Shown one piece after another: positions 1 to 39,728 of a DNA stretch of 64,000 nt. Within the stretch, counting starts at the first letter, position 1, and every line of letters begins with the position of its first letter. The position numbers were made by a program, and so were the translations under genes. The stretch spans positions 7,604 to 71,603 of the forward strand of contig CAYSVS010000002.1 of assembly GCA_964434475.1 (NCBI GenBank). The letters run 5' to 3'. The notes below the pieces were generated by a model. It made no database searches. It worked only from the letters and a program-made list of their open reading frames with translations, and was not told the DNA's origin. The DNA comes from an uncultured Methanosarcinales archaeon. GTDB lineage: Archaea; Nanobdellota; Nanobdellia; Woesearchaeales; CAYSVS01.

Positions 1-28
1 TAATATATTTCTTCAAGCTTAACGCTAT

Positions 29-439
29 ATGGATATTGTTGGGAACTTTGGTTATAGCGTTCATAACATGGTTATTGTATTATACAAAAGTGGAGTCAAA
101 AATATGAACTCAAAACAAGCGTCATGGTATACTGAATTCTGGGCAGAATTTTACGCAATAATAGGTTTTGCGATAGGATTGCTTGTATCAATAAACATTA
201 AAAATTCCGCGATGTTTTTGGTGGTGCTTTTGATATTCGGATTGTTAGCAGGAAGATTATTATACGGCATGAAAAGACATCCTATGTTTCCGTATTATCT
301 TATAGTCATGCTTACATTCATAGGATTCATTATAGGAAACTGGCTTTCTGGAAAAAGGGTAAATATTTTAGTTTCAACATTAACGTATTTTCTTACAGCA
401 ATATTAAGCTATCAGATCCATAAGAAAGGATATGTATGA
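29..439 (+). CDS. hypothetical small integral membrane protein (3-4 predicted TM helices)
   Basis: The 136-aa ORF contains strongly hydrophobic segments (FAIGLLVSI, FLVVLLIFGLLAG, LIVMLTFIGFIIG). Its stop overlaps the next gene's start (ATGA), which suggests an operon. No motifs recognised. Confidence 0.4.
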   Translation: MDIVGNFGYSVHNMVIVLYKSGVKNMNSKQASWYTEFWAEFYAIIGFAIGLLVSINIKNSAMFLVVLLIFGLLAGRLLYGMKRHPMFPYYLIVMLTFIGFIIGNWLSGKRVNILVSTLTYFLTAILSYQIHKKGYV

Positions 440-999
440 TAAAAAAGATAGTTGAATGTATTTGGAAAATTCCAGCGGATTCTAATATATACTATGTTGA
501 GGATATAAACGCAGCGATAGATACAGGCAACAGAAAAAATAGAGAGATGGTAAAGACATTCTTAAGCAAAATTGTTGATTTAGAAAAGATAGAGATAGTG
601 ATATTTACTCATCTTCATTATGACCACATAGGTAACTTTGATCTTTTTCCTAATGCTAAATTCTATGCAAGCAAAGAAGCTATAGGAGATATAGAAAAAG
701 ATAAACATGGAACAATACTAGACAAAGATATGGAGAAAAAGTTCAATATTGAACTGATAGAAATAAGCAACATAAAATTACCAGACAAATACGAGATAAT
801 CCGCACACCAGGACATACTCGCGGCTCAATATGCTTATGGGACAAAGAAAAACAGATTTTGTTTTCAGGAGATACTTTGCTTAATGAAGGCCATGGAAGA
901 ACAGACTTGCCGACAAGCGATAATGAAGAGATTCAAAAAACATTAGTCAAACTGATAAGCTATAATTTTAAAATATTGTGTCCAGGTCATGAATATTAG
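436..999 (+). CDS. metallo-beta-lactamase fold hydrolase
   Basis: The canonical MBL zinc-binding motif THLHYDHIGN (HxHxDH) is present. Downstream His and Asp residues (TPGHTRGS, SGDT, CPGHE) fit the MBL superfamily. Confidence 0.7.
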   Translation: MIKKIVECIWKIPADSNIYYVEDINAAIDTGNRKNREMVKTFLSKIVDLEKIEIVIFTHLHYDHIGNFDLFPNAKFYASKEAIGDIEKDKHGTILDKDMEKKFNIELIEISNIKLPDKYEIIRTPGHTRGSICLWDKEKQILFSGDTLLNEGHGRTDLPTSDNEEIQKTLVKLISYNFKILCPGHEY

Positions 1000-1049
1000 A
1001 ATATTTAAAAATAATAAGTTTTTTAAAAGAAACGCATTCTCATAAAAAT

Positions 1050-1337
1050 ATGGTCCCAGATATGGCAGAAGAACTAGAAATATTGGTAAACAGAAAACTA
1101 CCAGAAACAACACACGTACATGGTACTTTGAAAACCATAATCAGAGGAAACAGGGAATTGTATGAAAAAGATGCGATTACCAAAGAAGAAATAGTAGAAA
1201 CATATCAAAAAGTAAAGATGAGGATTGCGATGTATGTGCTTCCTGGAAAATATAGGAAACATATAAAACAATGGTTTGAAAACAAGCATGAAGAAAACAT
1301 TAGTTCACCTTTATCTATCGCTTATTATAACAGATAA
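1050..1337 (+). CDS. hypothetical protein
   Basis: A 95-aa ORF sits in an otherwise empty intergenic slot. No recognisable motif. Confidence 0.3.
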   Translation: MVPDMAEELEILVNRKLPETTHVHGTLKTIIRGNRELYEKDAITKEEIVETYQKVKMRIAMYVLPGKYRKHIKQWFENKHEENISSPLSIAYYNR

Positions 1338-1449
1338 ACAAATACATTTATATAGTTCTGGTCAAATAGAACATATTAGTATAAATTGATGAGGTAAAAA
1401 AAGAAAAAGCATTAATTGATTTTAATCGACTTTTTCTTGAATTGTTAAA

Positions 1450-2703
1450 ATGAATGAATTTAAAGAATTAGGAATAAATAAAGATATATTGAAAGCGATA
1501 AACGAACAAAATTTTGAAAGCCCGACAGAGATACAAAAAAAAACAATACCTATTGCATTAAAAGGCAAAGATATAATTGCAGGTTCAGCAACAGGAAGTG
1601 GAAAGACATTAGCTTTTGGCGCAGGAATACTGCACAATTGTGAAAAACAAGGAGTCATCCAATCTTTGATATTGACGCCAACCAGAGAATTAGCTGAACA
1701 GATAAGAAAAGAAATAAAGAAATTCTCAAAGTATAAACAATTAAGGATTTGTTCTGTTTATGGAGGGGTTTCAATTAACCCGCAGATGAACCAATTAAGG
1801 ACAGCAGATATTGTTGTCGGAACTCCAGGAAGAATATTGGATCACATTGGAAGAAGGACAATAGATTTAAAAAATGTAAAAGTGCTTGTTCTTGATGAAG
1901 CAGACAGAATGCTTGATATGGGTTTTATCGATGATGTCAAGATGATAATCAAAGAATGCCCTAAGAAAAGACAAACAATGATGTTTTCTGCTACAATACA
2001 CGGAGAATTAAGCAAAATAGCAAAACATTACATGAATGAACCTACAAAGGTCAGCGTAGAATCATATGTAGATCCAAAAAAATTAAAGCAAGTATATTAT
2101 GATGTTGACAAAAAAATAAAGTTTGCATTGCTCGTACATCTACTAAAAAAAGATAAATCCAACATATCTATGGTATTCTGCAATACGCAAAGAAACACAG
2201 ATTTTGTTGCAGACAATCTCGTCATCAACGGAATAGATGCTATAGCTATACATGGCGGATTATCACAGGCAAAAAGAGAGAAGATGCTTGAAAAGTTCCA
2301 TTCTAAGAAAGCGAATGTTTTAGTCTGTACAGATGTTGCTGCAAGAGGTTTAGACATAAAAGAAGTTTCACATGTATATAATTACGACATTCCAAACGAG
2401 AGCAAGCAATACATACACAGGATAGGAAGGACAGCAAGAGCTGGAAAAGAAGGTATGGCTATCAATCTTGTTGGTGAAAGAGATCACGATAATTTCTCAA
2501 GAGTGTTCAGGGATTTTGATATTAAAGTAAAAAAAGAAGAAAAGCCGTTTGTAGAAAGAGTGAAAATTAAAAGAACCCAACAGAGAAGGGACAGCAGAGG
2601 ATTCAATAGAAGACCAAGAAAAACATTCGGAAGAGGTTCATCACAAAGAGGTCCGCCAAGAAGAAATAGAACTTCAGGCAGAAGTAATAACAGAAGAAGA
2701 TAA
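1450..2703 (+). CDS. DEAD-box ATP-dependent RNA helicase with Arg-rich (RGG-like) C-terminal tail
   Basis: The DEAD-box motifs are all present: Q-motif region, motif I AGSATGSGKT, Ia PTRELAEQ, TPGR, motif II VLDEADRMLDMGF, motif III SAT and motif VI HRIGRTARAG. The C-terminus is an RRxxRGF/RGxxxRR low-complexity tail. Confidence 0.92.
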   Translation: MNEFKELGINKDILKAINEQNFESPTEIQKKTIPIALKGKDIIAGSATGSGKTLAFGAGILHNCEKQGVIQSLILTPTRELAEQIRKEIKKFSKYKQLRICSVYGGVSINPQMNQLRTADIVVGTPGRILDHIGRRTIDLKNVKVLVLDEADRMLDMGFIDDVKMIIKECPKKRQTMMFSATIHGELSKIAKHYMNEPTKVSVESYVDPKKLKQVYYDVDKKIKFALLVHLLKKDKSNISMVFCNTQRNTDFVADNLVINGIDAIAIHGGLSQAKREKMLEKFHSKKANVLVCTDVAARGLDIKEVSHVYNYDIPNESKQYIHRIGRTARAGKEGMAINLVGERDHDNFSRVFRDFDIKVKKEEKPFVERVKIKRTQQRRDSRGFNRRPRKTFGRGSSQRGPPRRNRTSGRSNNRRR

Positions 2704-2730
2704 ATATTGATAAAATAAAGCAAAGGAAAA

Positions 2731-3039
2731 TTATTCCAGCTTTACTCTTTCTGTTTCAAGCAGTTTTTTTATATCTTTCTTTATTCTGGACAATCTTTTT
2801 ATGGAATCCTCTAGTTTCAACTTAGCCTCTTCCTTATTCCATGTAGAATGTCCACCAGAAAGCCATATAAGATTTTCATTATATAATCTAAGATTATGCT
2901 GCAGCCTATACATTATGCCATTTGTCTGAAGTATTACGTGTTTATTTGCATGTTCTTTGCATATCTTGAAATATTCTTTTTCATCTCCTTTTTCCAATGC
3001 TTTCAATGCGTCTTTAAGGTATTTATGAAACAAACCCAT
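2731..3039 (-). CDS. hypothetical protein (approx. 102 aa)
   Basis: The ORF start was trimmed to the ATG at 3039, which is preceded by a GGAGGT Shine-Dalgarno-like sequence. The longer track ORF begins at a TTG. No recognisable domain. Confidence 0.4.
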   Translation of the reverse strand: MGLFHKYLKDALKALEKGDEKEYFKICKEHANKHVILQTNGIMYRLQHNLRLYNENLIWLSGGHSTWNKEEAKLKLEDSIKRLSRIKKDIKKLLETERVKLE

Positions 3040-3167: not shown

Positions 3168-5381
3168 ATGCTAAAAGATTTTAAGCCAAGGCTGTACCAA
3201 GAGACTATTTTTGCTACTGCTGCGAACTATAATACATTAGTTGTACTGCCTACTGGAATGGGAAAAACAAGTGTAGCATTGATGCTTGCTGCACAAAGGC
3301 TTAAACAGTATCCTGATTCAAAGATTCTTATTCTTGCTCCAACAAAGCCATTAGTAGAGCAAATTATGCAGGTGTTCAAAGCAAAGACCAATCTTGATGA
3401 CAGTAAGATAGCTATGTTCACTGGCAGCATCAAACCAGAAAAAAGACAAGAGATGTGGAAAACACACCAGATAATTGCGAGTACTCCGCAAGGATTAGAA
3501 AATGATATAATAAGCAACAGGATAGACTTAAAAGATGTTAGCTTGATGGTTTTTGATGAATGTCATAGAGCAGTAAAAGACTACAGTTATGTATGGGTTG
3601 CAAAACAATACAACAATAAAGCAAGGTATCCAAGGATATTAGGATTAACAGCTTCTCCTGGAAGCGATTTAGAAATAATCAATGAGGTTTGTCAGAATCT
3701 ATTCATAGAAGAGATAGAGATTAGAACAGATAAGGATCCTGATGTAAGGCCATATATACAAGATGTAAAGCTTGACTGGATAAAAGTACAGCTGCCTTCA
3801 GCATTCAAGGATATACAAAAATTGTTGAAGGATTGCATAAGGACAAAAGTTAAAGACATAAAAAATCACGGTATAATAACCAATATATCTTCGCAGTCAT
3901 CAAAAAGAGATCTGCTAGGAATACAGGCGCAGTTAAGAAAAGAGATAAGCCAAGGCAAAAGTATTGAAGCACTATTATCTATCAGCCTGATGGCAGAGAT
4001 AATGAAAGTTCAGCATGGTTTAGAGTTGCTTGAGACACAAGGAATTTCTGCACTAAATACTTACATGGAAAAAATATATCAAGAGTCATTTACAACAAAA
4101 ACAAGAGCAACCAAGAATTTAGCAAGAGATCTAAATTTCAGAAGTGCGTTGATAAAGACAAAAACATTGTTCGAGAAAAATATTGAGCACCCTAAACTTA
4201 ATGAATTAAGAAACATAATAATAAATGAATACAAAAAAAACAAAGGTGTAAAAGTAATAGTATTTAATCAATACAGAGACAGTGCAAAAAGAATTGTTGA
4301 AGAGATGAATTCTATAGATAACATTAAAGCGAAACTGTTCGTAGGACAAGCTAAGAAGAACGGCTCAGGATTAAGCCAAAAAAAGCAGATAGAGATGTTA
4401 GAAGAGTTCAGGAATGATGAATTCAATGTTTTAGTAAGCTCAAGCGTAGGAGAAGAAGGATTGGATATTCCGCAGGTTGACATAGTTATATTTTTTGAGC
4501 CAATCCCTAGCGCTGTAAGAACAATCCAAAGAAGAGGAAGAACAGGAAGATTAGAAAAAGGAAGAGTGCTTATACTTATGGCACAGGGAACAAGAGATGA
4601 AGGGTATAGATGGAGTGCTCATCATAAAGAAAATAGAATGCATAGAAACCTAGAGTTGTTGAGAAATAATTTTAGAAGACAGAAACAGATCAATACTGTG
4701 AAAAAACAGACTAACCTAAATAAGTTTGTGTATGACAATGTAAAAGTATATGTAGATTATAGGGAGAAAGGAAACAAGATAATAAAAGATCTGATAGAAA
4801 AAGGGTGCGATATAAAGCTTGATAAATTAACCCATGGAGATTACATACTAAGCGATAGGTGTGCTGTTGAGTACAAGACAAAAGAGGATTTTGTCAATAG
4901 TTTACTAGACGGAAGGCTTTTTGAACAGATCAAAGAACTAAGAAATAATTTCTCAAGACCACTCATTCTTGTTGAAGGACAAGAAGACATTTATCAAGTA
5001 AAAAATATACATTCAAACGCGATAAGAGGATTGCTTGCTTCTCTAACAGTAGGTTATGGTATTCCTGTGATATTTACTAAAGACAATAAGGACAGCAGTG
5101 CTATGCTTGCGATGATAGCTAAAAGAGAGCAGCAGGAATCTGGAAAAAACTTCACGCCTCATGGAAGCAACAAGCCAAAAACATCAGAGCAGCAGCAAGA
5201 GTATCTAGTCAGTGCATTGCCAGGAATAGGATTAGGGTTGGCAAAGCCGTTATTAGAAGAGTTTAAAACAATAAAGAATATAGTCAATGCTGATGTTGAA
5301 CAATTGAAAAAAGTAGAGAAGATAGGAGAGCTGAAAGCAAAAGCGATAAAGGAACTGATCGAGAAAGAGTATAAGGATTAA
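3168..5381 (+). CDS. hef: Hef-type helicase-nuclease (SF2 DEAH helicase + ERCC4/XPF nuclease + HhH2)
   Basis: The N-terminus has a Walker A (LPTGMGKT), a DECH box, TAS and motif VI QRRGRTGR. The C-terminus has an ERCC4 nuclease signature (GDYILSDRCAVEYKTKED, i.e. the GDx…ERK motif) followed by a helix-hairpin-helix (LPGIGLGLAKPLLEEF). Archaeal Hef has the same architecture. Confidence 0.85.
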   Translation: MLKDFKPRLYQETIFATAANYNTLVVLPTGMGKTSVALMLAAQRLKQYPDSKILILAPTKPLVEQIMQVFKAKTNLDDSKIAMFTGSIKPEKRQEMWKTHQIIASTPQGLENDIISNRIDLKDVSLMVFDECHRAVKDYSYVWVAKQYNNKARYPRILGLTASPGSDLEIINEVCQNLFIEEIEIRTDKDPDVRPYIQDVKLDWIKVQLPSAFKDIQKLLKDCIRTKVKDIKNHGIITNISSQSSKRDLLGIQAQLRKEISQGKSIEALLSISLMAEIMKVQHGLELLETQGISALNTYMEKIYQESFTTKTRATKNLARDLNFRSALIKTKTLFEKNIEHPKLNELRNIIINEYKKNKGVKVIVFNQYRDSAKRIVEEMNSIDNIKAKLFVGQAKKNGSGLSQKKQIEMLEEFRNDEFNVLVSSSVGEEGLDIPQVDIVIFFEPIPSAVRTIQRRGRTGRLEKGRVLILMAQGTRDEGYRWSAHHKENRMHRNLELLRNNFRRQKQINTVKKQTNLNKFVYDNVKVYVDYREKGNKIIKDLIEKGCDIKLDKLTHGDYILSDRCAVEYKTKEDFVNSLLDGRLFEQIKELRNNFSRPLILVEGQEDIYQVKNIHSNAIRGLLASLTVGYGIPVIFTKDNKDSSAMLAMIAKREQQESGKNFTPHGSNKPKTSEQQQEYLVSALPGIGLGLAKPLLEEFKTIKNIVNADVEQLKKVEKIGELKAKAIKELIEKEYKD

Positions 5382-6212: not shown

Positions 6213-7058
6213 TCAAAAACGCATATCCTTAAGCTTATTTATCCTGTTTTCTATAGGAGGATGTGTGCTCATCAGATGGAGCATCCCTCTTGCACTAAAA
6301 GGGTTAACTATAAACAAGGAGCTTGTAGCTTCACTGCCTATCTTCATCGGCATAACTTTGCCTGCTGCATCGAGCTTTTCCAAAGCTTTGGCTAAACCGA
6401 AGGGATTATGCAATATCTTTGCTGCTGACTCATCTGCCAGATATTCTCTGCTTCTTGACAATGCCAATTGCAATAGCGCTGCTATTATTGGAGTGATTAT
6501 GGCTAAAGCAAGCAGTTCAAATCCTCTGCCATTGTCTCTGTCCCTTCCGCCGCCGAATATAGCAGCCCACCTTGCCATAAAAGCTAGATAAGATATTACT
6601 CCTGCAATAGTTGCAGCTATTGTCTGTATAAGAGTATCCCTATTTTTAATATGACTTAACTCATGTGCAATAACGCCTTTAAGCTCATCTTTTCCCAATA
6701 GATTCATTATTCCTGCTGTAACTGCCACAGCACTATTTTTTGGATTTCTGCCTGTTGCAAACGCATTAGGGTTTGAAGAAGGTATAAAATACACCTTGGG
6801 CATAGGAAGCTTTGCAAGATGTACAACTTCTTTCACTAACTTGTAGAGTTCAGGATTATCCTTTTCTTTTATTTCTTTGGCTTTGTACATTGCAAGCACT
6901 ATCTTGTCAGAGAACCAGTATGAGCCAAAATTCATCAGCAATGAAAATATCAATGCTATTGTCATTCCGCTAGGTCCTGCAAAGTAATAGCCTACTCCTA
7001 ATAATAGTCCAGTTAGCAATCCCAACAACAGAACTGATTTTAATTGGTTTTTTATCAT
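6213..7058 (-). CDS. htpX: HtpX-like M48 zinc metalloprotease (membrane)
   Basis: Two N-terminal TM helices are followed by the HExxH motif (HELSHIKNRD) and then two further TM helices. The topology and motif spacing are typical of HtpX. Confidence 0.85.
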   Translation of the reverse strand: MIKNQLKSVLLLGLLTGLLLGVGYYFAGPSGMTIALIFSLLMNFGSYWFSDKIVLAMYKAKEIKEKDNPELYKLVKEVVHLAKLPMPKVYFIPSSNPNAFATGRNPKNSAVAVTAGIMNLLGKDELKGVIAHELSHIKNRDTLIQTIAATIAGVISYLAFMARWAAIFGGGRDRDNGRGFELLALAIITPIIAALLQLALSRSREYLADESAAKILHNPFGLAKALEKLDAAGKVMPMKIGSEATSSLFIVNPFSARGMLHLMSTHPPIENRINKLKDMRF

Positions 7059-7165
7059 TTTAAAGTATATTATAGATAGCCATTTATAAATTTTTCACAT
7101 AAGTGTCTATCCCTTCCACTTGAGTAAGGTTTGTATGCTTGAATATGAACTCTCTTATCTTTGTG

Positions 7166-7435
7166 TTAACTAACACCTAATCTCTGCAGACCAGAGTTTA
7201 GTGTACCAAACAATTTCTTGCCTGTAGTATCAAAGTCAGTCAATATTATTACATCATCGCTTTGCTTTGCAGCATCTTCAACAACAGAGAATATTGGCTT
7301 ATTCAGTATAAGTATATCATTCTTTATGCCTATGTTTTTCAAAGCTATCCTATCATTTATTCCTTCAACGATTATCAATGCTTTAGACTCATTTATCCTG
7401 TCTATCCAATCATTGATCAAAGCAAGCTCATCCAT
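7166..7435 (-). CDS. small stand-alone Toprim-domain protein
   Basis: It has Toprim signatures: a conserved Glu (IIVEGINDRIAL) and a DxD (VIILTDFDTTGKK). The start was set at the ATG (MDELAL…) because the track ORF begins with TTG. The gene is divergent from the primase gene. Confidence 0.6.
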   Translation of the reverse strand: MDELALINDWIDRINESKALIIVEGINDRIALKNIGIKNDILILNKPIFSVVEDAAKQSDDVIILTDFDTTGKKLFGTLNSGLQRLGVS

Positions 7436-7489
7436 ATCTACACTACAATATAACAAAATATATAAAATTGCTGGAATAAGCATAAGATA

Positions 7490-8923
7490 ATGGCAGACTA
7501 TAAAGAAATTGATAAGAATATAGTATTAAAGCATTACTCTAAAAAAGAGGTCCAGGAAGAGATAGTTAGATGCAGCAAGGATAAGGAAGTTGTGGGAAGT
7601 TATGGAGGACATGGTTATGCAAAACGCCCAGATATAATTATGCATCCAAGTGACGTATTAGAACTGGTTAAAAAAGGGATTACAAGCTTCCACATGTCTG
7701 AAGAGATCTGGGAAAATCCTCTTGCGATAGACCCTATGATGAAGAAAAAAGAGATTGAAGAGCTAAAGAAAGGCTGGGATCTTATTTTGGATATTGACTG
7801 CCATTTTCTCGAATACAGCAAGTTTGCAGCCCATCTTCTCGTAGAAGCTTTAAAATATCACAGCATAGAAAGTGTAAGTGTCAAATTTTCAGGCAACCAC
7901 GGGTTCCACATAGGTGTGCCTTTTGAAGCGTTTCCAGAGGAGATAAATGATACAGAAACCAGAAAAATGTTTCCAGAAGCACCAAGGAGAATTGCAGCTT
8001 ACCTAAAAGAGATGATAAAAAATCCGCTCTCAGAAATGATAATGAAGCATGAAAACAACGATTTCTCTGAAATCATGAAAAAAACAGAAAAGACCGCAGA
8101 AGAGATAACAAGATACGAATACAATGAAATGGGCGATAAGATACCTAAACTGGATTCAGAACCTTTTCTCGAGATAGACACAATACTCATCTCATCAAGG
8201 CACCTTCTCAGGCATGTATATAGTTTCAATGAAAAATCTAAATTAGTAAGTATACCTATCAAGACAAACCAAATATTAACTTTTGATAAAAAGTCTGCAA
8301 TACCAGACAATATAAAAGATTTTTCGACCAAGTTTTTGGAAAGAGAGAAAGCAAAAGAAGGAGAGGCAAATAATTTATTTGTACAAGCTTTTGATTTCAA
8401 GCCGCAGATAGAAAATGAATACCAACAACTGGCTGAAAAAAGCAAAAAAGAATATCAGATTCCAGAAGAAGCTATTCCAGAAGAACTATTTCCTCCATGT
8501 ATCAAAAGGATTTTAGAAGGACTGCAGGATGGCAGAAAAAGATCTCTATTCATATTGATTAATTTCTTGACATGTGCAGGATGGAGTTATGAACAAATCG
8601 AACAAAGACTAAAGGAGTGGAACAAATGCAATGAAGAAGAATTAAGGGAAACCATACTTATGGGGCAGCTAAGATACAATAAACAGCAGAAAAAGAAAAT
8701 ACTGCCGCCCAACTGCCTTAATTCATATTATAAAGATCTGCAGATATGTTCACCAGACAACTTATGCAAAATGATTAAAAACCCCATACAATATTCAAGA
8801 AGAAAAACATATTATTCTGAAAAGAAAAACAATAAAAAAAAGAACAAAGCTGAAAAAAAAGAGAAAGACAACAAATCAAATAAATCAGAATCAAATAATA
8901 AAAAAGATAAAAAGCAAGATTAG
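7490..8923 (+). CDS. priSL: fused archaeo-eukaryotic primase: PriS catalytic domain + PriL-like Cys-rich C-terminal domain, Lys-rich tail
   Basis: The N-terminal half has AEP primase motif I (LILDIDCH, hhhDhD) and motif II (FSGNHGFHIGVP, sGxRGxH). The C-terminal half carries the PriL/Pri2-type 'FPPCIKRIL…GxRxxxLFILINFL' motif and clustered cysteines (LTCAGW, NKCNEE, PPNCLNSYYKDLQICSPDNLC), consistent with a 4Fe-4S PriL C-terminal domain. It ends in a K/N-rich low-complexity tail. Confidence 0.7.
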   Translation: MADYKEIDKNIVLKHYSKKEVQEEIVRCSKDKEVVGSYGGHGYAKRPDIIMHPSDVLELVKKGITSFHMSEEIWENPLAIDPMMKKKEIEELKKGWDLILDIDCHFLEYSKFAAHLLVEALKYHSIESVSVKFSGNHGFHIGVPFEAFPEEINDTETRKMFPEAPRRIAAYLKEMIKNPLSEMIMKHENNDFSEIMKKTEKTAEEITRYEYNEMGDKIPKLDSEPFLEIDTILISSRHLLRHVYSFNEKSKLVSIPIKTNQILTFDKKSAIPDNIKDFSTKFLEREKAKEGEANNLFVQAFDFKPQIENEYQQLAEKSKKEYQIPEEAIPEELFPPCIKRILEGLQDGRKRSLFILINFLTCAGWSYEQIEQRLKEWNKCNEEELRETILMGQLRYNKQQKKKILPPNCLNSYYKDLQICSPDNLCKMIKNPIQYSRRKTYYSEKKNNKKKNKAEKKEKDNKSNKSESNNKKDKKQD

Positions 8924-9597
8924 CTTGCTTTAAATGTTTTTATGTAAGTATCTAAAGTACTGCCAGCAGAATCTTGGAAAACAACTTTCAATGTTTTTGT
9001 TTCATCAATGTCATTAAAACTTTCTCCTATTTCCTGTACAGATTCATAAATCTCTCCTTCTTCTATCTTTCTCAAGCTTACTGTTTCCTGGACAGCGTTC
9101 TTTACTATATCACCATCGTTATCATCATATATGTAAATATTATAGGTGATGTACACTCCTGCCAATCCATTCTCTATCTTAAGATTGAAATTTTTCAATT
9201 TTCCCCAATCTGATTCCTCGTTCTTGATTACAGCATCTATATCACTTATTGTGAACTTTCTTCTTCCAGGCAATGCTGTAGGTGTTGATGAATCTTCAGG
9301 TTCTAAATCTGCAGCTGACTCAGAATCAGTCTCTGGTTCAACGACAGGTTCTAAATCTGCAGCAGTTTCGTTCGCTATTGAGTCTTCATCAGAAGATTCA
9401 GCAGTTATTTCCTCTACTGCCTGCTCTTCAGGTGTTTGAACAGTTTCAAGCTCAGTTTGAGTAGCTAATCCTGTCACATTTGATTCAGGCAAATCCACCC
9501 TTTGCCAAAATATAATACCTGATAATACTATGATAATCAGAACAAAAATCAGCCTTTCTAAATGTTTTGGCCTTAATCTTATTACAATCTCATCCAT
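8920..9597 (-). CDS. hypothetical membrane-anchored protein with acidic low-complexity linker
   Basis: An N-terminal TM (LIFVLIIIVLSGIIFW) is followed by an E/D/S/T-rich spacer (EPVVEPETDSESAADLEPEDSS) and a C-terminal globular region. No known motif. Confidence 0.45.
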   Translation of the reverse strand: MDEIVIRLRPKHLERLIFVLIIIVLSGIIFWQRVDLPESNVTGLATQTELETVQTPEEQAVEEITAESSDEDSIANETAADLEPVVEPETDSESAADLEPEDSSTPTALPGRRKFTISDIDAVIKNEESDWGKLKNFNLKIENGLAGVYITYNIYIYDDNDGDIVKNAVQETVSLRKIEEGEIYESVQEIGESFNDIDETKTLKVVFQDSAGSTLDTYIKTFKAS

Positions 9598-9879: not shown

Positions 9880-10848
9880 ATGCCTACAAGAAAAAACCCA
9901 AAACACGGAAGCATGCAGTTTTGGCCAAGGAAAAGGGTCAAGAAAGAGACAGGTTTGATTAGATCATGGGCTAAAGTCAATGATCCTATAGCTTTAGGCT
10001 TTGCAGGATATAAAGCAGGCATGACACATCTAATAGCGACAGACAATAAGCCAAAGTCACAGACAAAAGGGCAAGATATAAGAGTGCCTGTAACAATTGT
10101 TGAATGTCCGCCATTAAAGGTTATGGGTATAAGATATTATAAAAACACACCTTATGGATTAAAGGTAGTTTATGATAAGATGGCTCAAAACCAAGACAAG
10201 GATCTTTATAGGAAACTAATAAAACCTAAGAAAAAACAGGAAAATAAAGAATTTAATTTTGATGATATTATGCTTATTGTATATGCACAGCCAAAGCTTA
10301 CAGGAATAGGCAAGAAAAAACCAGAAATATTTGAGCTTGCTATAGGCGGAAATAAGGAAGACAAGGTTAAATACGCTGAAGAAGTATTAGGAAAAGATAT
10401 CAAAGTTACTGACGTATTTAAAGAAGGTCAGCAGGTGGACTCACATTCTGTAACAATAGGTAAAGGATTTCAAGGATCTGTCAAGAGATGCGGAGTCTCT
10501 ATCAAGCAGCACAAAGCAGAAAAAGCGAAAAGAGTATCAAGTCCAGCAGGATCATGGAACAGAGAAAACCAGACAATGTGGAGAAACCCAAAAGCAGGCA
10601 AGATGGGCTATAATCTAAGAACGCAGTATAATCTACAGATAATCAAGATAAGCGACGATTTAGAAGGGGGAAACCCTAAACAAGGTATAAAGAGATTTGG
10701 AAAACTCAAGAACACATATGTTTATGTAAAAGGTTCAATACCAGGTGTAAGAAAAAGGATCATAAGATTTAATCGTGCGATAAGATCTAATAAAAAGATA
10801 CCTAAAGACGCACCATCCATAAATTATATTCATCTAGCAGGAATGTAA
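9880..10848 (+). CDS. rpl3: 50S ribosomal protein L3 (uL3)
   Basis: The N-terminus reads MPTRKNPKHGSMQFWPRKR, as is typical of archaeal L3. It is the first gene of the conserved L3-L4-L23-L2 cluster. Confidence 0.92.
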   Translation: MPTRKNPKHGSMQFWPRKRVKKETGLIRSWAKVNDPIALGFAGYKAGMTHLIATDNKPKSQTKGQDIRVPVTIVECPPLKVMGIRYYKNTPYGLKVVYDKMAQNQDKDLYRKLIKPKKKQENKEFNFDDIMLIVYAQPKLTGIGKKKPEIFELAIGGNKEDKVKYAEEVLGKDIKVTDVFKEGQQVDSHSVTIGKGFQGSVKRCGVSIKQHKAEKAKRVSSPAGSWNRENQTMWRNPKAGKMGYNLRTQYNLQIIKISDDLEGGNPKQGIKRFGKLKNTYVYVKGSIPGVRKRIIRFNRAIRSNKKIPKDAPSINYIHLAGM

Positions 10849-33836: not shown

Positions 33837-35039
33837 ATGATGTATAAAAAAAAGAGAGCTCAGGAAACAGGCAGTGGAGCCGCTATCTTGGTTATAATAA
33901 TTACTATTTCAATAATATTATACATAATGTTCATTCCTCCTTCTGAAAGACAAAAATTGCTTGATGATGTAGAAACAACAAAAAACGGGAAAATAATAAA
34001 CGGCGATTATGAAGTTACAACACTGCTTTCGGAAAAGCCAGGAAAATTAACATACTTGAAAGAAAAAGAGATAGAGCATAATATTCCTTCGTTCAACATA
34101 TACACAAAAACAGAAGGGATAGTGCTGAAAGAAAAAAATACATTATACATTGAAAGAGAATTGTTCAATGAAGAAAAAGCCAACCTGAGTTTTGTTATAA
34201 AGGACATAGAAAACGCGAACAATCTTTTATTGAGTTTTCAGTCTGCAAAAAATTCAGGTTTCCTTGTCATAAAACTTAACGGAATAGAAATATTCAACAA
34301 AGAGATTACAGAAAACATAGTGAATCCTATAAAGATACCCAAAGAACACATCGAAAACGAGAACGTGCTTGAGTTCAGCACATCATCTATAGGAATAGCT
34401 TTCTGGTCAAAACACGAATATCTACTCGAAAATATAAAAATTACAGGAGATATAACAGATGTTAGCGCAAGAACAGCAAAAACCAATTTCATAGTTGATG
34501 AATTTGAAAAAGACAACCTTAAAAAGGTAAAATTAAGATATTACCCTGACTGTACTCCTACTGAAGTAGGCACATTAAGGATTAGACTTAATGACTGCAA
34601 GGTTTTTACAGGAGTTCCTGACTGCAATCAAGCAAGCATACATGAGATGCTTCCTTATTGTATGAGTGAAGGAGAGAATGTGTTGGAATTTGAAACAGAA
34701 AAAGGCCATTATCTTATTGATGGAATAAGAGTAAGAAGTGAGCTTAAAGAAGCAAGGGATTTCATATATGACTTTCACCTGAATTCATCCACCTATGAGG
34801 ATATAAAAACAGAAGAGTCTTATGTGAATTTAACTATGAAGTTCGCTGATCCTAACATAGAGAAAGAAGCAAGCATAATAATCAACGGACATGAAACAGT
34901 GCTTGATACTGACAAACTGGAGTTTGGAAGAAACATTAGATTATTCATCAATAAAGGCACAAACATAATCAAGATACTTCCAAAAGAGGATTTTTATGTT
35001 TCAGAACTAAACGTTGAACTATTTGAAAAAGAGGATTAA
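33837..35039 (+). CDS. hypothetical N-terminally anchored extracellular protein
   Basis: An N-terminal TM or signal anchor (AAILVIIITISIILYIMFIPP) precedes a roughly 360-aa hydrophilic domain. No known motif. It is the first gene of a five-gene surface-protein cluster. Confidence 0.45.
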   Translation: MMYKKKRAQETGSGAAILVIIITISIILYIMFIPPSERQKLLDDVETTKNGKIINGDYEVTTLLSEKPGKLTYLKEKEIEHNIPSFNIYTKTEGIVLKEKNTLYIERELFNEEKANLSFVIKDIENANNLLLSFQSAKNSGFLVIKLNGIEIFNKEITENIVNPIKIPKEHIENENVLEFSTSSIGIAFWSKHEYLLENIKITGDITDVSARTAKTNFIVDEFEKDNLKKVKLRYYPDCTPTEVGTLRIRLNDCKVFTGVPDCNQASIHEMLPYCMSEGENVLEFETEKGHYLIDGIRVRSELKEARDFIYDFHLNSSTYEDIKTEESYVNLTMKFADPNIEKEASIIINGHETVLDTDKLEFGRNIRLFINKGTNIIKILPKEDFYVSELNVELFEKED

Positions 35040-35061
35040 TTTTTTTCTTTTAAAACCAAAA

Positions 35062-36813
35062 ATGGCGCTTACACCTGAACAACAAGCAAGAAAAAAAGAG
35101 CTGCTCAGAAGAAAAGAAGAAAGAGAATCAGCAAAACCTTTGTCAACACTGGTAAAAGCTGAAAAAAAACAAGCGCAAGAAAGAATGGCTGCAGAAAAAA
35201 AAGAGACAGAAGAAAGTTTGGCAGGAAATAAAATAGAAACTGCTGCAAAAATAGGTTTAGGCGGTTTAGCAGGCAGAGCAGTCGGAAAGACCATTAGTAA
35301 AATAATGCCTAAAACAAAAGAGAAGACAGAAGAAGAGATAAACAAAGAATCAGAAAAACTCAAAAAAATAGTTTACTGCGGATGGTTCATCTATGCTATA
35401 CCTTTGATAGTAAATGCCATAGGTTTTGAACTTAACAGATCTTTATTGTTTTTTCTTAATCTAGGTTTGATCATGTATGCGCTGATACCTTTGAATGTAT
35501 ATGCGTTTGTTGCAGGAGTTTTAAGCTTTTGGCATACTGAAATATTTGCAGCTTTTGGATTAGCTACCAACAGGTTCTTGCTGCCTATATACTGGCCTTG
35601 GTGGGTGTTGTTTGCATTGTTCTATAAATGGAAGCAAGAGCAGACTAAACTGGTTGCATTATCAAGATTAGCTTTAGTTTATTTCATCGTTTTCGGACTT
35701 GTAATGATGGGTTTGACACAGACCATAGCACAAGTAGGACAAACAGAAGAAGTTGAAGAGATCAAACAAGAACAACAAGAAAGCGCATGGGAAGAATTCG
35801 CAAGGATTGCTAAGTGTACAATAAATCCAGGAGAAGAAGGATATGAATCATGTATGAATCCTCAAGAAGAAAGAGAAGAAGAACAGTTCAAAGGCGCTAC
35901 ATCTAAAAAAATAAACCAGAACAAGATAGAAATAAAAGCACCTAAACAATTGACGCAATTCGGACAGATAGAACTGAAAGATGCCGCAGGCAAAGTGCAG
36001 GCGAGTATGGAATATGAAGTAAATGAAAACATCAATGCAGGATTAAGCTGTTATTTTGAAAGAAAAGGAGAGCCAAGAATAAAGGGCATAATAGATAAGA
36101 CAGAGATAATTCTATTTAAAGATGAAGATAAAGCGACACTATTCTGTCAGCCTTCTAAACCTCTGGAAAACAAAGTATACAATGTACATTTTGTGGTAAA
36201 TGTTGATGATATGACTACAGAATCCATACTAAGAAGAATATTTATAGGGAGCATGACAGACAATAAAATAAAACAGGAACTGATAGATAGGTATATACTC
36301 AACACTTATCCTGATGCTGAAAAAGCAGGATCTTATGTAAGTGTAGCTCCTGAAAATGATTTCGTTGTACCGAGCATACTAATGGGAAATACAGACATAG
36401 AAAGCGGAACAATAAGCAACAGAAAACAGAAAAATGGCATGATTGAAATGGATTCTACATATGTCGTAGTTAACAATATAGATGGAAAAATAACAAAGAT
36501 AAAAGAGATAGAGATGACTTTGGCAGAAGGAATAAAGCCTGTTGAAGGAGAATGCACTAAATTCAGATATGACGAAGAAAGCAACAAGCTTTATCTTAAG
36601 GAAGAGAATATTGCAGGTGATTTTTCAGGCGTAGGAAAGAATGACATTGCCTTGTTCACAACATGTAAATTATATATCGATGAAACAGAAGGACAATACC
36701 TCATAGAACCAGAAGGCGATTATGAAGTTAAAGATTTCTTAGGAAGAGTAAGATATTCTTATAAGTATGACGAGACATTCAAAATAAAAGTCAATGTTCC
36801 GGTGGTATCATGA
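35062..36813 (+). CDS. hypothetical polytopic membrane protein with large C-terminal extracytoplasmic domain
   Basis: The start was set at the ATG at 35062 (MALTPEQQ) because the track ORF overlaps the upstream gene. A K/E-rich N-terminus is followed by about 4 TM helices (aa ~115-230) and a roughly 370-aa C-terminal domain. Confidence 0.45.
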   Translation: MALTPEQQARKKELLRRKEERESAKPLSTLVKAEKKQAQERMAAEKKETEESLAGNKIETAAKIGLGGLAGRAVGKTISKIMPKTKEKTEEEINKESEKLKKIVYCGWFIYAIPLIVNAIGFELNRSLLFFLNLGLIMYALIPLNVYAFVAGVLSFWHTEIFAAFGLATNRFLLPIYWPWWVLFALFYKWKQEQTKLVALSRLALVYFIVFGLVMMGLTQTIAQVGQTEEVEEIKQEQQESAWEEFARIAKCTINPGEEGYESCMNPQEEREEEQFKGATSKKINQNKIEIKAPKQLTQFGQIELKDAAGKVQASMEYEVNENINAGLSCYFERKGEPRIKGIIDKTEIILFKDEDKATLFCQPSKPLENKVYNVHFVVNVDDMTTESILRRIFIGSMTDNKIKQELIDRYILNTYPDAEKAGSYVSVAPENDFVVPSILMGNTDIESGTISNRKQKNGMIEMDSTYVVVNNIDGKITKIKEIEMTLAEGIKPVEGECTKFRYDEESNKLYLKEENIAGDFSGVGKNDIALFTTCKLYIDETEGQYLIEPEGDYEVKDFLGRVRYSYKYDETFKIKVNVPVVS

Positions 36814-37688
36814 AAAAAACAAGGATTATTCTTGCATTGGCACTTATAACTATTCTGGTTACAGGATGTGATATGTTAGTCAAAAAAAACCCTACAAAAG
36901 ACATATCCTCTCCCATAGATTATAATAAAGGAACAAAAGCTTTGGAAGTTGAAATATTAGAAAATATGCCGCCTGAAGAAATATATGAATACGAAGATTT
37001 TACCATAGGAGTGGCTATCAGAAATACAGGAAGATATGATGTAGAAGAAGCAGAAATATCCTTGGCAGGATTAGTAGATATGTATTTTGATGTTGAAAAG
37101 GAAGATTATAAAGAAAAGATAAACCTGAAAGGAAGAAGCCAAGATAATCCAGAAGGAGAGCTTAAATTCATCCAAATAAACGCGAAAAATAAAGGAATAC
37201 CTTTAGGTATGGAAGAATATGATGCATCTTTCGATATAGGCTTGTTCTACAGCTACGAAACAATAGCTAGCGCAGAAGTTTGCGTAAATCCTAATGCTTT
37301 GAAAAACATAAAATTAAGTGAAGATCTATGCGAAATGAAAGATGTAAGGTTAAGCAGCCAGGGAGCGCCAATAGCAGTAAAGAAGGTAGAACAATATATA
37401 AGTTCAGTAGGAAGTAAACTGAGAGCTAATTATGAAATATACCTAGATAATGTAGGAGATGGCAAGCTAACTTTTGATAAGATAAAGCTTGAAGAAGCCA
37501 TGCTGTCAACAAATGAACTTACATGCAAAAATTATATTATAGAAGATTTTAACGAACAAAAGGAACCAAAATTCGTATGCTATAGAGACATATCAAATGA
37601 AGAAGGAACAGATAGTACAATACTTAGCGTAAAATTATCTTATGACTATAAGACAGTACATCAAGGAGAGATAACTATAAAAAAATAG
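36810..37688 (+). CDS. predicted secreted lipoprotein-like protein, paralog 1 of 3
   Basis: It has a signal peptide with a lipobox-like Cys (ILVTGCDM). Motifs shared with the two following genes are ENMPPEE, YSYETIASAEVCVNP and QGAPIAVKKV. Confidence 0.55.
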   Translation: MKKTRIILALALITILVTGCDMLVKKNPTKDISSPIDYNKGTKALEVEILENMPPEEIYEYEDFTIGVAIRNTGRYDVEEAEISLAGLVDMYFDVEKEDYKEKINLKGRSQDNPEGELKFIQINAKNKGIPLGMEEYDASFDIGLFYSYETIASAEVCVNPNALKNIKLSEDLCEMKDVRLSSQGAPIAVKKVEQYISSVGSKLRANYEIYLDNVGDGKLTFDKIKLEEAMLSTNELTCKNYIIEDFNEQKEPKFVCYRDISNEEGTDSTILSVKLSYDYKTVHQGEITIKK

Positions 37689-37834
37689 CAGAGAAATAAT
37701 AATATTAATATGCTTAAAAAATAAAAAATCCCAACGCAGCAAAATCAAGTTTTTTACCGAAAAGCTTATATATTGTATAAAATGAATAATTAAGTGACAA
37801 TAATTATAATTGATTATAAAAAGAGAGCGTTAAG

Positions 37835-38758
37835 ATGACAAAAAAAAGAGTTATGGTAATAGTATTGATGCTTCTGCTAGTTTTTTCTACTGGCTGCGTA
37901 AAGAAAAAATCTACTGAAACATTCGGGCCAGGTGTGATGAGCAACAAGATATATACTGGAACAAATGGCATAAATATGAAATTCATGGAAAATATGCCTC
38001 CTGTAAGAACTTATGATAAATCAGGTTTGAATATTCTTGTAGAGCTTAACAACAAAGGTGCTTTTGAAACAAGCGGAGACATATACATTACAGGTTTTGA
38101 TAAAAACCTCATACCTCTTAAGCCACTGCACCATAGTTTCACTAACCTTGAGCCTAAATCAAATTTTAACGAACAGGGAGGATTTGAAAAGCTTTCTTTT
38201 GAAGCACAATCTTTTAGGCTGCCCGAAGGAACGGATTCGTTCCCTGTGAAAATGCTCGTATCTATGTGCTATCCATATGAAACAAAAGCAAATCCAGTAG
38301 TGTGTATAGACCCTAAGTTGTATGATGTTGATGTTTCAGAAAAAGCATGTGAAGCTAGAGATATTAGTTTAGGCGGAGGGCAAGGTGCTCCTGTAGCAGT
38401 TACAAGAGTTAGTGCAGACACAATAGAGGACAAAGTACATTTCAAGATAGATATTGCTAATGTGGGCGGAGGAGAAGTTATCAGAAGAAGTTCTGTTTCC
38501 TCAACAAAGTGCCCTTTTGACCTTGAATATGCAGACTTGAACAAGGTAAGGTATGATATTGATATGACAAGCGGAAGTTTAGAAAAATGCAATCCAAGCA
38601 ATAATGAAGTTCCATTAACAAACGGCAGAGGATCCATATATTGTACGTTTAGAGTAAACGCAGACAACTCTTATCAAACCCCTATCAAGATTAAATTAGA
38701 TTATGGTTATGTTGACTCAATATCAAAAAATGTTGAAATAGTCAGAATTCCGAATTAA
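37835..38758 (+). CDS. predicted secreted lipoprotein-like protein, paralog 2 of 3
   Basis: Signal peptide plus Cys (VFSTGCVKK). Shared motifs are ENMPPVRTY, CYPYETKANPVVCIDP and QGAPVAVTRV. Confidence 0.55.
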   Translation: MTKKRVMVIVLMLLLVFSTGCVKKKSTETFGPGVMSNKIYTGTNGINMKFMENMPPVRTYDKSGLNILVELNNKGAFETSGDIYITGFDKNLIPLKPLHHSFTNLEPKSNFNEQGGFEKLSFEAQSFRLPEGTDSFPVKMLVSMCYPYETKANPVVCIDPKLYDVDVSEKACEARDISLGGGQGAPVAVTRVSADTIEDKVHFKIDIANVGGGEVIRRSSVSSTKCPFDLEYADLNKVRYDIDMTSGSLEKCNPSNNEVPLTNGRGSIYCTFRVNADNSYQTPIKIKLDYGYVDSISKNVEIVRIPN

Positions 38759-38771
38759 AAGGTGATAAAAA

Positions 38772-39728
38772 ATGATGAAAAAAATATTTGCGATCATTAC
38801 ATTGGTCTTATTTATGTTTTGCGCTGTAGGATGCGAAGAACAAACAAATGAAAAGACATCTACAGGAGCAACAACAAAAGCGTTCATAGGCGGAAATAAG
38901 GGTTTAGACCTTAAGTTCGTTGAAGGTGCACCGCCTGAAGAAGTATATGATGCGGATTATCCTTTCAATATAAACCTAAGATTGGAAAATGTTGGAGAAC
39001 ACGATATTCCTGCAAACGAAGCAGAAATCAAGATAGTTGGAATAGATCCTGCTGATTTCGGTAATCCTGAAGTTGAGAAAAGCAATACAGTAGAACTTAG
39101 AGGCGCTAATCTGGATCCTCAAGGAAACGAAATTTCAGGAAGCATAGAAAATATTGACTTTGAGAATCTACAAGCTTCAACTGTTACAGGAAGCGTGCCT
39201 TACACAATAAGAGGAGAAGTATGCTATCCATACGGAACAACTGCTGTTTCACAGATATGTGTCCTTGAAGATATACTGGGAACTACAAGAAAATCAGGAG
39301 AAGAAGCATTCTGTGAAGTTACAGGGGATAAAGGAGTAGAAAATTCAGGAGCACCTGTGAAAATTGAAAATGTCAACCAAAGAGCTACTGGAAAAGATAA
39401 AATCTCTTTCAGTTTTGATATAGCACATACTGGAAATGGATTGATATTCAAGAAAGATAGTGATTGCAGTCAAGGACTAGAGAATAAGAACAAGGTTAAT
39501 GTAAAAGTAACAAGCGGAATTACCGGTGGAGAGTTATCATGTAGCGGGTTAAGCGCAGGAACTGAAGGAGAGCTAGCTTTATATGGCGAAGGCGGAAAAG
39601 AGAGAAGAACAGTAGTATGTACACAATCATTGCCTACAAAAACAGATTCAGAGAAACAGATAAAGATTGAGCTAGATTATGAGTATAAACAGCACATAGA
39701 TACACAGATAATAGTAAAAAACACATAA
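38772..39728 (+). CDS. predicted secreted lipoprotein-like protein, paralog 3 of 3
   Basis: Signal peptide plus Cys (CAVGCEEQ). Shared motifs are EGAPPEEVY, CYPYGTTAVSQICVLED and SGAPVKIENV. Confidence 0.55.
   Translation: MMKKIFAIITLVLFMFCAVGCEEQTNEKTSTGATTKAFIGGNKGLDLKFVEGAPPEEVYDADYPFNINLRLENVGEHDIPANEAEIKIVGIDPADFGNPEVEKSNTVELRGANLDPQGNEISGSIENIDFENLQASTVTGSVPYTIRGEVCYPYGTTAVSQICVLEDILGTTRKSGEEAFCEVTGDKGVENSGAPVKIENVNQRATGKDKISFSFDIAHTGNGLIFKKDSDCSQGLENKNKVNVKVTSGITGGELSCSGLSAGTEGELALYGEGGKERRTVVCTQSLPTKTDSEKQIKIELDYEYKQHIDTQIIVKNT

Follow-up and report, generated by a model that had tools for sequence, protein, structure and literature searches.

The 64-kb stretch of DNA that we analyzed (hereafter the window) contains two genes that point away from each other across a short gap. 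The rightward gene is an open reading frame (7490..8923, +) that encodes a 477-aa protein plus a stop codon, and its matches to Pfam, NCBIfam, and PDB entries identify it as a fused PriS-PriL(CTD) primase gene. The leftward gene codes for a Toprim protein and can be read as a frame of 105 aa (7166..7483) or of 89 aa (7166..7435). Beyond the Toprim gene lies a gene for an HtpX-like M48 peptidase (6213..7058, -; Pfam PF01435, E = 2e-36). Downstream of the primase is the gene for uL3 (9880..10848, +), the first gene of a large ribosomal-protein operon. A second PriS, PriL, or Toprim gene was not found within the window. Rfam and tRNA scans of the window gave no matches, and defence-system and phage libraries returned nothing relevant for the primase or the Toprim protein.

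In the 477-aa protein, PriS and the PriL CTD are united in a single primase chain, as has been reported for Nanoarchaeum and other DPANN archaea. A sequence-only reading of this DNA had proposed such a fusion, and sequence, profile, and fold evidence together with the literature bear the proposal out. An AEP/PriS catalytic domain forms the N-terminal part of the protein and is joined by a helical linker to a PriL C-terminal domain. In the C-terminal half, the PriL model Pfam PF04104 scores above gathering over residues 277-430 (27 versus 22.4 bits, E = 3.6e-6). The match of PF01896 (PriS) to residues 113-258 falls below gathering when the single sequence is used as the query (19.7 versus 26.8 bits, E = 1.2e-3). 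NCBIfam PriL models align only through their C-terminal parts (positions 204-358 of 360, E = 2e-11), and the PriL structure 9f26_B in the PDB is also matched (E = 9e-9). This architecture is shared by no fewer than 1,899 homologues, which are 422-503 aa long, and many of them carry both PF01896 and PF04104. Where these homologues are named, they are assigned to Woesearchaeota or Nanoarchaeota.

We aligned the primase with its homologues (alignment A1) and judged residue invariance across 30 of them. The AEP/PriS catalytic domain (residues 1 to ~275; 7490..8314, +) was defined by A1 invariance, Foldseek, and the A1 profile. Its motif I (DxD) is LILDIDCH at residues 98-105 (7781-7804, +), and motif II (SGxxGxH) is FSGNHGFHIGVP at residues 133-144 (7886-7921, +). 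Motif III, with the third Asp, H, and R/K, reads D230...H238..R241...E248-K249-S250 (8177-8239, +). All three motifs are conserved in A1, where D101, D103, S134, G135, H140, D230, R237, H238, and R241 are invariant. Motifs I and II had already been picked out in the N-terminal half, and the invariance of their catalytic residues substantiates that assignment. In an AlphaFold2 model of the whole protein (pLDDT 85.8), the PriS domain and a helical CTD are connected by a linker whose hinge is modelled with low confidence. Foldseek searches with this model retrieved PriS, Pri1, and other AEP polymerases at probability 1.0. The E-values were 2e-8 for Prim-PolC, 2e-6 for human Pri1, and 9e-6 for PriS from P. 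furiosus (1g71). The A1 profile also matched human Pri1 over a region spanning motif III (E = 3e-3).

The linker (residues ~276-329; 8315..8476, +), delimited by AlphaFold2 secondary structure and pLDDT, contains helices at residues 294-302 and 308-318 and has its low-confidence hinge at 307-325. It is followed by the PriL C-terminal (Fe-S) domain (residues 330-431; 8477..8782, +), recognized by its invariant Cys residues and the NCBIfam PriL match. The signature FPPCIKRIL...GRKRSLF occupies residues 334-354, with FPPC at 8489-8500 (+) and R349, R351, and F354 at 8534-8551 (+). The Cys cluster LPPNC...QIC...NLC follows at residues 405-426. Four Cys residues, C337 (8498-8500), C409 (8714-8716), C420 (8747-8749), and C426 (8765-8767, all +), are invariant across the 30 homologues and align with the Cys residues of Pyrococcus abyssi PriL. 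They are the predicted [4Fe-4S] ligands. The earlier claim of a PriL/Pri2 Fe-S domain rested on this motif and Cys cluster, and it is upheld by the PF04104, NCBIfam, and 9f26_B matches. When the PriL-CTD was modelled alone (pLDDT 87), the top Foldseek hits were PriX and the PriL Fe-S domain at a non-significant E of ~0.9, and the domain is therefore assigned by sequence and profile. The PriL models match through their C-terminal 40-45% only. The N-terminal, PriS-docking domain of PriL is absent, and the covalent helical linker stands in its place. A Lys-rich C-terminal tail (residues 432-477; 8783..8920, +) has 18 K/R in 46 residues, is modelled as one long helix, and varies in length among the homologues in A1.

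The Toprim gene next to the primase is frameshifted. Pfam Toprim_4 and Toprim both match its open reading frame above gathering, and the product contains the family-invariant E24 and D67-x-D69 (alignment A2). The 5' part of the gene (7169..7435, -) encodes residues 1-89 from the Met codon at 7435, as supported by Pfam, A2, and profile matches, and runs into an in-frame stop at 7166-7168. The 3' part, VNTKIREFIFKHTNLTQVEGIDTYVKNL with its stop codon (7084..7170, -), is out of frame and was identified from its translation, the A2 alignment, and profile matches. At the frameshift site (7169..7172, -), frame A ends ...GGT GTT (7177-7172) AGT TAA, and frame B resumes with GTT AAC (7170-7165). The frame-corrected protein is ~117 aa long. 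The sequence-only reading was right about a divergent Toprim protein with a conserved E and DxD, but the 89-aa length it gave comes from a truncated reading of a longer, frameshifted gene.

Homologues of the Toprim protein support this reconstruction. A single-sequence query with the 89-aa protein, limited by a word prefilter, retrieved four proteins only, and we redid the search with an alignment of ORFs from related loci. The homologues are 111-147 aa long overall. Each of the 45 extracted from related loci has a length of 112-131 aa and closes with ...GVKVDxxFREFLFKxTKLRQIEG.... A profile built from the homologues alone aligned through its positions 6-90 to the first ORF (E = 3e-30) and, in a search of 1,631 ORFs, through its positions 90-118 to the second one, of 30 codons (E = 2e-8). 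The out-of-frame segment could be aligned to all homologues and keeps the family-invariant R and G and the nearly invariant E. Either the loss of 2 nt or the gain of 1 nt at the codon homologous to the K of GVKVD would explain the lesion. We discarded programmed frameshifting as an explanation: GGU GUU AGU UAA C offers no slippery re-pairing, and a programmed +1 slip would give a product one residue shorter than every homologue. We favour Met-7435 as the start codon on the basis of homologue N-termini and the spacing to a TATA-like element. Starting at the ATG at 7483 would add a 16-residue hydrophobic extension that is missing in the homologues and would leave only 6 nt between the genes; we found no record of this 105-aa version as a called gene.

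Every conserved residue is kept in the out-of-frame remnant, and the lesion is therefore recent, polymorphic, or artefactual. We asked how well an error in the consensus or assembly, or a variant carried by a minority of the population, would account for it, in which case an intact protein of ~117 aa would be made. The remnant retains the invariant and nearly invariant R, T, E, and G and terminates normally, with a stop codon 25 nt ahead of the next gene, and the gene bears no second lesion, all of which would fit such an error. Against it, the Logan assembly of SRR7048224 is identical to the window over 5,779 nt including the frameshift, so that two assemblers gave the same sequence over 5.8 kb, although both assemblies possibly derive from the same reads of that one run. 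The frameshift site is also not a homopolymer. Among the three closest relatives, the Toprim gene is intact in one (L090, a 112-aa protein) and absent near the primase in the other two (L001 and L089). Because the gene is independently missing in these relatives, its loss appears to be ongoing in the clade. We regard an artefact or minority variant as rather unlikely. Given its absence in close relatives, the Toprim gene, dispensable and frameshifted in this genome, is probably decaying and not a component of the priming machinery. The appropriate annotation is a frameshifted gene or pseudogene, instead of a protein of 89 aa.

We compared the Toprim family to known proteins. Its profile matched PDB 1T6T, a 118-aa stand-alone 'putative protein', over the full length (E = 4e-23). 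It also matched five NCBIfam PRK04017 'hypothetical protein' models, the best at 65.2 bits versus a cut-off of 124 even for the frame-corrected sequence. Intact homologues likewise fall below the PRK04017 cut-offs, and the match is at the family level only. The divergent neighbour is a small stand-alone Toprim protein whose relatives include 1T6T, the PRK04017 models, and the core of RNase M5. Like other small stand-alone Toprim proteins (1T6T, PRK04017, 2I5R, and 2FCJ), it has a conserved E and DxD and a similar length. It differs from the 1T6T/PRK04017-like proteins in that the gene is frameshifted and the conserved C-terminal R...T...EG segment is out of frame. Such Toprim proteins had been described as a feature of small archaeal genomes. 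The matches to 1T6T and PRK04017, and more weakly to RNase M5, tell against that description, and we saw no sign in the sequence comparisons of a family peculiar to small genomes. Bacterial and archaeal DnaG share only the Toprim core with this protein (~60 residues, model positions 159-218 of 419, E = 1e-4). Unlike DnaG, it has no zinc-binding domain, N-terminal RNA-polymerase-core subdomain, or C-terminal domain. At ~117 aa, the Toprim protein is too small for a primase.

The resemblance to RNase M5 raises the possibility that the Toprim protein is an RNA-processing nuclease of ribosome biogenesis and that its position reflects the ribosomal-protein operon, not the primase. The Toprim domain of RNase M5 (6tg6) is hit by the family profile at E = 1e-4, and TIGR00334 is hit weakly. 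One homologue was named ribonuclease M5 by JGI, and in most loci the block containing the Toprim gene adjoins the uL3 operon. However, the C-terminal domain that binds 5S rRNA/uL18 is missing (~117 versus 174-187 aa), and TIGR00334 scores 16-23 bits against a cut-off of 110.65 over the Toprim core only. The primase gene also lies between the Toprim gene and the operon, the Toprim gene is transcribed away from the operon, and it stays with the primase where the operon is elsewhere. We consider an RNase M5-like role unlikely.

The gap between the two genes contains a candidate regulatory element. The head-to-head intergenic region is 54 nt long (7436..7489) and has a central A/T-rich TATA-like element, TTTTATATATTTT (7455-7467). 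This one element lies ~22-24 nt from both start codons, which makes the gap a putative bidirectional promoter, a function that we infer in a genome of 33% G+C. Related loci with gaps of ~44-59 nt have one central TATA-like box, and longer gaps have two. In about half of the related genomes, the Toprim gene and the primase gene start head-to-head on either side of a short promoter that is probably bidirectional.

We examined how often the arrangement recurs. The two genes are head-to-head in 34 of 71 related loci anchored on the primase, with start codons 35-242 nt apart (median 73). Toprim-anchored look-ups found the primase next door in five cases out of five. Wherever a Toprim gene lies within 10 kb of the primase, it is upstream and divergent. 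The conserved block reads HtpX - Toprim <> primase -> uL3 operon. Within 3 kb of the primase, uL3 is found downstream in 34/44 loci and the M48 peptidase, the usual gene beyond Toprim, upstream in 23/44; Toprim is next to the primase in 22/44. The Toprim gene is absent within flanks of up to 10 kb in 25 of the 71 loci, and in several of these HtpX directly abuts the primase. The primase-Toprim pair persists in three loci where other flanking genes have changed (L082, L084, and L091), in seven loci without uL3, and in five without M48. This recurrent head-to-head arrangement is apparently unpublished. The observation is modest, but it could guide a functional test of an uncharacterised Toprim family.

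These data bear on the proposal that the two genes form a 'minimal priming apparatus', a functional pair co-expressed from a shared promoter in which the Toprim protein acts in priming or primer processing. The frequency of head-to-head starts, the consistent result of the Toprim-anchored look-ups, the invariable orientation, the survival of the pair amid changed flanks, and the single central box in gaps of ~50 nt all speak for it. The absences speak against it: Toprim is missing from the flanks of up to 10 kb in more than a third of the loci and from two of three close relatives, and it is broken here. Since uL3 lies beside the primase more often than Toprim does, inherited gene order explains much of the pairing signal. 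The ~117-aa protein is also a Toprim core without the zinc-binding or helicase-binding parts of DnaG. NEQ395, the biochemically characterised fused primase of Nanoarchaeum equitans, is monomeric and primes alone (PMC10250227). In the collection of papers that we searched, none linked a fused primase with a small Toprim protein. We therefore find a functional pair improbable, and a link between the small Toprim protein and priming is not supported; the neighbour should not be read as a component of the priming machine. We give similarly little credence to a version in which the Toprim protein is a facultative partner of the primase that is expressed from the shared bidirectional promoter and has RNA primers or RNA-DNA junctions as substrates, which it might for instance trim or remove. 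If it were true, the recurring Woesearchaeota pair would be an undescribed two-gene replication module that is being lost in some lineages, including the present one.

The idea that the fused primase derives from a plasmid, virus, or integrated element (like PolpTN2 of pTN2, or RepB') instead of being a cellular replicative primase can point to the fused PriS-PriL-like primases of mobile elements and to a weak PHROG 'primase' match (E = 2e-8), but it is scarcely credible given a position between HtpX and the uL3 operon that is stable across dozens of species-level genomes, a G+C content typical of the window, no integrase, defence, or viral neighbours found, and the report that Cluster 2 DPANN have the fused form only and inherit it vertically (PMC7414124). 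We hold with high confidence that the locus combines a fused DPANN replicative primase with a Toprim neighbour that is probably decaying and outside the priming machinery.

We read the 477-aa protein as the primase that replicates the chromosome of a DPANN archaeon resembling Woesearchaeota, with a mechanism that was shown for its orthologue NEQ395 and is predicted here. Two metal ions would be held by D101, D103, and D230 of the PriS domain, and the elongating NTP would be bound through H68, S134, H140, H238, and R241. The flexible helical linker would carry the PriL-CTD and take the place of the missing PriL N-terminal docking domain. R349, R351, and F354 of the PriL-CTD would then grip the initiating nucleotide and the 5' end of the primer. 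Because these residues are supplied by a tethered domain, dinucleotide formation would occur in cis, and the length of the tether would limit the length of the primer. C337, C409, C420, and C426 would coordinate a [4Fe-4S] cluster with a structural or regulatory role, not a catalytic one.

The closest known systems are NEQ395 and the fused primases of DPANN Cluster 2 and Undinarchaeota (PMC7414124, PMC3914693), in which the fusion is a shared derived character (PMC7414124). Like NEQ395, the primase here combines in a single polypeptide a PriS domain at the N terminus and a PriL Fe-S CTD, joined by a helical linker that contains a flexible hinge, and has no PriL N-terminal domain. Its linker resembles the linker helix and flexible loop described for NEQ395. 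Mutagenesis of NEQ395 showed that H58, D87/D89, S119, H125, D194, H202, R205, R301/R303, and F306 are needed (PMC10250227). We matched residues between the two proteins by motif identity and spacing, not by direct alignment. On this basis, D87/D89 of NEQ395 correspond to D101/D103 and S119..H125 to S134..H140. D194, H202, and R205 (+8, +3) correspond to D230, H238, and R241 (+8, +3), and C289, R301, R303, and F306 (+12, +14, +17) to C337, R349, R351, and F354 (+12, +14, +17). The catalytic Asp/His/Arg residues, the R-x-R...F patch, and the four Cys thus appear to be shared, with matching spacing. The proteins differ in length: the primase here has 477 aa, whereas residue numbering for NEQ395 in the published work stops at ~393. 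The additional residues come from three places: an extended linker region, the 46-residue Lys-rich tail, and an insertion near residues 200-225 that only some homologues have. The primase described here also comes from a mesophile-type genome of 33% G+C.

The canonical PriS and PriL proteins (P. abyssi 9f26/9f28, P. furiosus 1g71, and human Pri1/Pri2) have the same AEP fold and catalytic motifs, and the FPPC / PPNC..C..C signature of the CTD is found in P. abyssi PriL. In contrast to the canonical heterodimer, two genes are merged here into a single ORF and the PriL N-terminal domain is missing. PriS from P. furiosus contains a Cys-rich zinc knuckle. The N-terminal 300 residues of the 477-aa protein include only two Cys (C28 and C104), which makes a zinc knuckle of this type unlikely. 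Primases fused in this way are a textbook marker of DPANN Cluster 2, and an orthologue has already been dissected biochemically. The gene matters little for discovery and simply confirms a Woesearchaeota-like origin of the window. We conclude that it is an ordinary representative of the one-chain PriS-PriL primases already known from small DPANN archaea.

The sequence-only reading proposed that the 477-aa ORF at 7490..8923 (+) encodes PriS and PriL in one chain. This assignment is correct and is supported by sequence matches, invariant residues and an AEP fold match, but primases of this type have already been published. All of the motifs on which the proposal was built are present in the ORF: LILDIDCH (residues 98-105), FSGNHGFHIGVP (133-144), FPPCIKRIL...GRKRSLF (334-354), and the Cys cluster LPPNC...QIC...NLC (405-426). 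The Pfam PriL profile (PF04104) matched residues 277-430 above its gathering threshold, and the PriS profile (PF01896) matched residues 113-258 slightly below. The protein covers just the C-terminal ~155 positions of the NCBIfam PriL models (E = 2e-11). The sole significant PDB match of the single sequence was P. abyssi PriL (9f26_B, E = 9e-9), and in this alignment FPPC and PPNC..C..C pair with PriL cysteines. With a profile built from 30 homologues, human Pri1 was also matched, over motif III (E = 3e-3).

In the AlphaFold2 model (pLDDT 85.8), an alpha/beta catalytic domain leads into linker helices (294-318) that have a low-confidence hinge (307-325); next come a helical domain (330-430) and, at the C-terminus, a long basic helix. 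A Foldseek search with this model recovered AEP enzymes at probability 1.0, including mycobacterial Prim-PolC, human Pri1, and PriS from P. furiosus and P. abyssi. When the C-terminal domain was modeled by itself (pLDDT 87), PriX and PriL Fe-S domains topped the Foldseek list with non-significant E-values (~0.9), so the assignment of a PriL C-terminal domain (PriL-CTD) rests on sequence evidence.

At least 1,899 primase homologues are present in the protein database. Lengths among the best 120 span 422-503 aa, many of these proteins have precomputed PF01896 and PF04104 matches, and the named ones are labelled Woesearchaeota or Nanoarchaeota. An alignment of 30 homologues showed invariant catalytic residues (D101, D103, S134, G135, H140, D230, R237, H238, R241) and four invariant cysteines (C337, C409, C420, C426). 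The Woesearchaeota-type fusion, together with its syntenic block, occurs in many TPA MAG records (related loci L001, L003, L006, L011, L013 and many others) that bear the title 'uncultured Methanosarcinales archaeon'; this organism name looks like a placeholder or a mislabel. In a JGI contig (L083, 2589-3957), gene calling splits the primase into ORFs of 288 and 87 aa; an otherwise similar ENA contig (L082) has one 456-aa gene. The split probably reflects an error in assembly or sequencing, or else a further broken copy.

The divergent Toprim gene had been described as encoding an 89-aa protein; this must be corrected, since the gene carries a frameshift. The ORF (7166..7483, -) codes for 105 aa, or for 89 aa if translation begins at the Met at 7435, and terminates at ...LQRLGVS*. 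We took 45 Toprim ORFs from 80 related loci, and all 45 are 112-131 aa long and end in ...GVKVDxxFREFLFKxTKLRQIEG.... The lost C-terminal segment, VNTKIREFIFKHTNLTQVEGIDTYVKNL*, lies in another frame at 7084-7170, and once the frame is corrected this segment aligns perfectly with the homologues, including the invariant R and G. A Toprim profile made without the window sequence matched the first ORF over positions 6-90 (E = 3e-30) and the 30-codon second ORF over positions 90-118 (E = 2e-8). A sequencing artefact is a possible, though doubtful, source of the shift; the Logan assembly of SRR7048224 is identical to the window over 5,779 nt, shift included. Among the closest relatives (primases 65-70% identical), L090 has an intact 112-aa Toprim gene 59 nt from the primase, L001 has an unrelated ORF of 342 aa at that position, and L089 has lost both Toprim and the adjacent M48 peptidase gene htpX. 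We read the frameshift and the state of these relatives as ongoing gene loss.

The Toprim and primase genes had also been interpreted as a minimal priming apparatus. The arrangement itself is real: in 34 of 71 related loci with sufficient upstream sequence, the two start codons lie 35-242 nt apart (median 73; 54 nt in the window), and in another 12 Toprim lies upstream at a distance of 315-2,229 nt, on the same strand. Toprim-anchored look-ups found an adjoining primase in 5/5 cases, with otherwise different flanks in three. Short gaps contain a single central TATA-like box and longer gaps two. In the window (G+C ~33%), the placement of this box (TTTTATATATTTT, 7455-7467), ~22-24 nt from each ATG, suggests a putative bidirectional promoter. 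However, in 25 of the 71 loci Toprim was absent from the flanks examined (up to 10 kb), and many lineages can do without the gene. The whole block from htpX (6213..7058, -) through Toprim and primase to the uL3 operon (from 9880, +) is also syntenic across the related loci. In the 44 that have 3 kb or more on each side of the primase, uL3 follows it in 34 cases, Toprim adjoins it in 22, and htpX lies close by in 23. This synteny indicates that inherited gene order explains much of the pairing signal. A true functional partnership is improbable, and the minimal apparatus is unsupported.

The Toprim family has at least 2,604 members, and the best 120 are 114-147 aa long. Nothing was seen that marks it as a hallmark of small archaeal genomes, as had been suggested. 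The family matched five NCBIfam PRK04017 'hypothetical protein' models, all below cut-offs. Our literature search found no paper giving it a function or tying it to the fused primase.

Several other features of the window and of related loci were recorded. In 34 of 44 related loci, the fused primase lies directly upstream of the large uL3-uL4-uL23-uL2 operon, an adjacency better conserved than the Toprim pairing and reminiscent of replication-translation gene links described in other archaea (PMC2643942). A G-rich Shine-Dalgarno-like run (GGGGG/GGGGGAG) sits just 5' of the primase ATG in L005, L013, L040, L051, L057, L067, L068 and L079. No such run precedes the window primase ATG, where the spacing would fit a leaderless transcript. 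The gene at 8920-9597 (-), convergent with the primase and sharing 4 nt with it at the stop codon, codes for an acidic protein of 225 aa whose N-terminus has a hydrophobic segment. This protein has no Pfam, PADLOC or PHROG matches; a homologue in the equivalent position was found in L001 only, with two weak matches elsewhere (L025, L027), and L089 has a 228-aa ORF there. Genes for DNA/RNA transactions include those for a Hef-type helicase-ERCC4 nuclease (3168-5381, +), a DEAD-box helicase (1450-2703, +) and the RFC small subunit (41154-42272, -). Hef belongs to the conserved neighborhood, upstream of htpX. In L090 (positions 1-3002), hef contains an intein (PF14890) and codes for 1,271 aa versus 737 in the window, and the M48 peptidase is 544 versus 281 aa. 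Six consecutive ORFs (33837-41097; 400, 599, 292, 307 and 318 aa on + and 450 aa on -) had no Pfam match at E <= 1e-5; their neighbors are an eRF1-family gene with eRF1 domains 1-3 on one side and the RFC gene on the other. A 5,021-aa ORF (47738-62803, +) contains DUF7507, a He_PIG Ig-like domain and DUF11 in four repeats, and probably encodes a surface protein of giant size; its start is overlapped by a gene (47241-47741, +) whose 166-aa product has HTH motifs and sigma-70 region 4.

We compared both proteins to known systems. A solved 118-aa 'putative protein' (1T6T) matches the Toprim family over its full length (E = 4e-23), and weaker matches are the Toprim domain of RNase M5 and two structures described as 'small Toprim domain'. 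DnaG shares the Toprim core alone, and the size of the protein falls far short of a DnaG-type primase. Pfam scans of larger ORFs and family profiles against all ORFs revealed no further PriS, PriL or Toprim gene in the 64-kb window. PriS-PriL fusion was noted in Nanoarchaeum equitans and then in further nanosized archaea (PMC3914693; PMC2643942). It is common to all DPANN Cluster 2 archaea and Undinarchaeota, and priS and priL are still separate in Cluster 1 (PMC7414124). The N. equitans enzyme, NEQ395, is active as a monomer, requires its PriL domain for initiation, has an Fe-S cluster that is dispensable in vitro, and makes primers whose length is affected by linker length (PMC10250227). Residues mutated in NEQ395 are present in the window primase with equal spacing, from which their equivalence is proposed: D87/D89 would correspond to D101/D103; S119..H125 to S134..H140; D194, H202 and R205 (+8, +3) to D230, H238 and R241; and C289, R301, R303 and F306 (+12, +14, +17) to C337, R349, R351 and F354. 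Because this mapping rests on spacing, we infer for the window primase a mechanism shown for its orthologue, in which the PriS domain would perform catalysis and the tethered PriL-CTD, acting in cis, would hold the initiating nucleotide as well as the 5' end.
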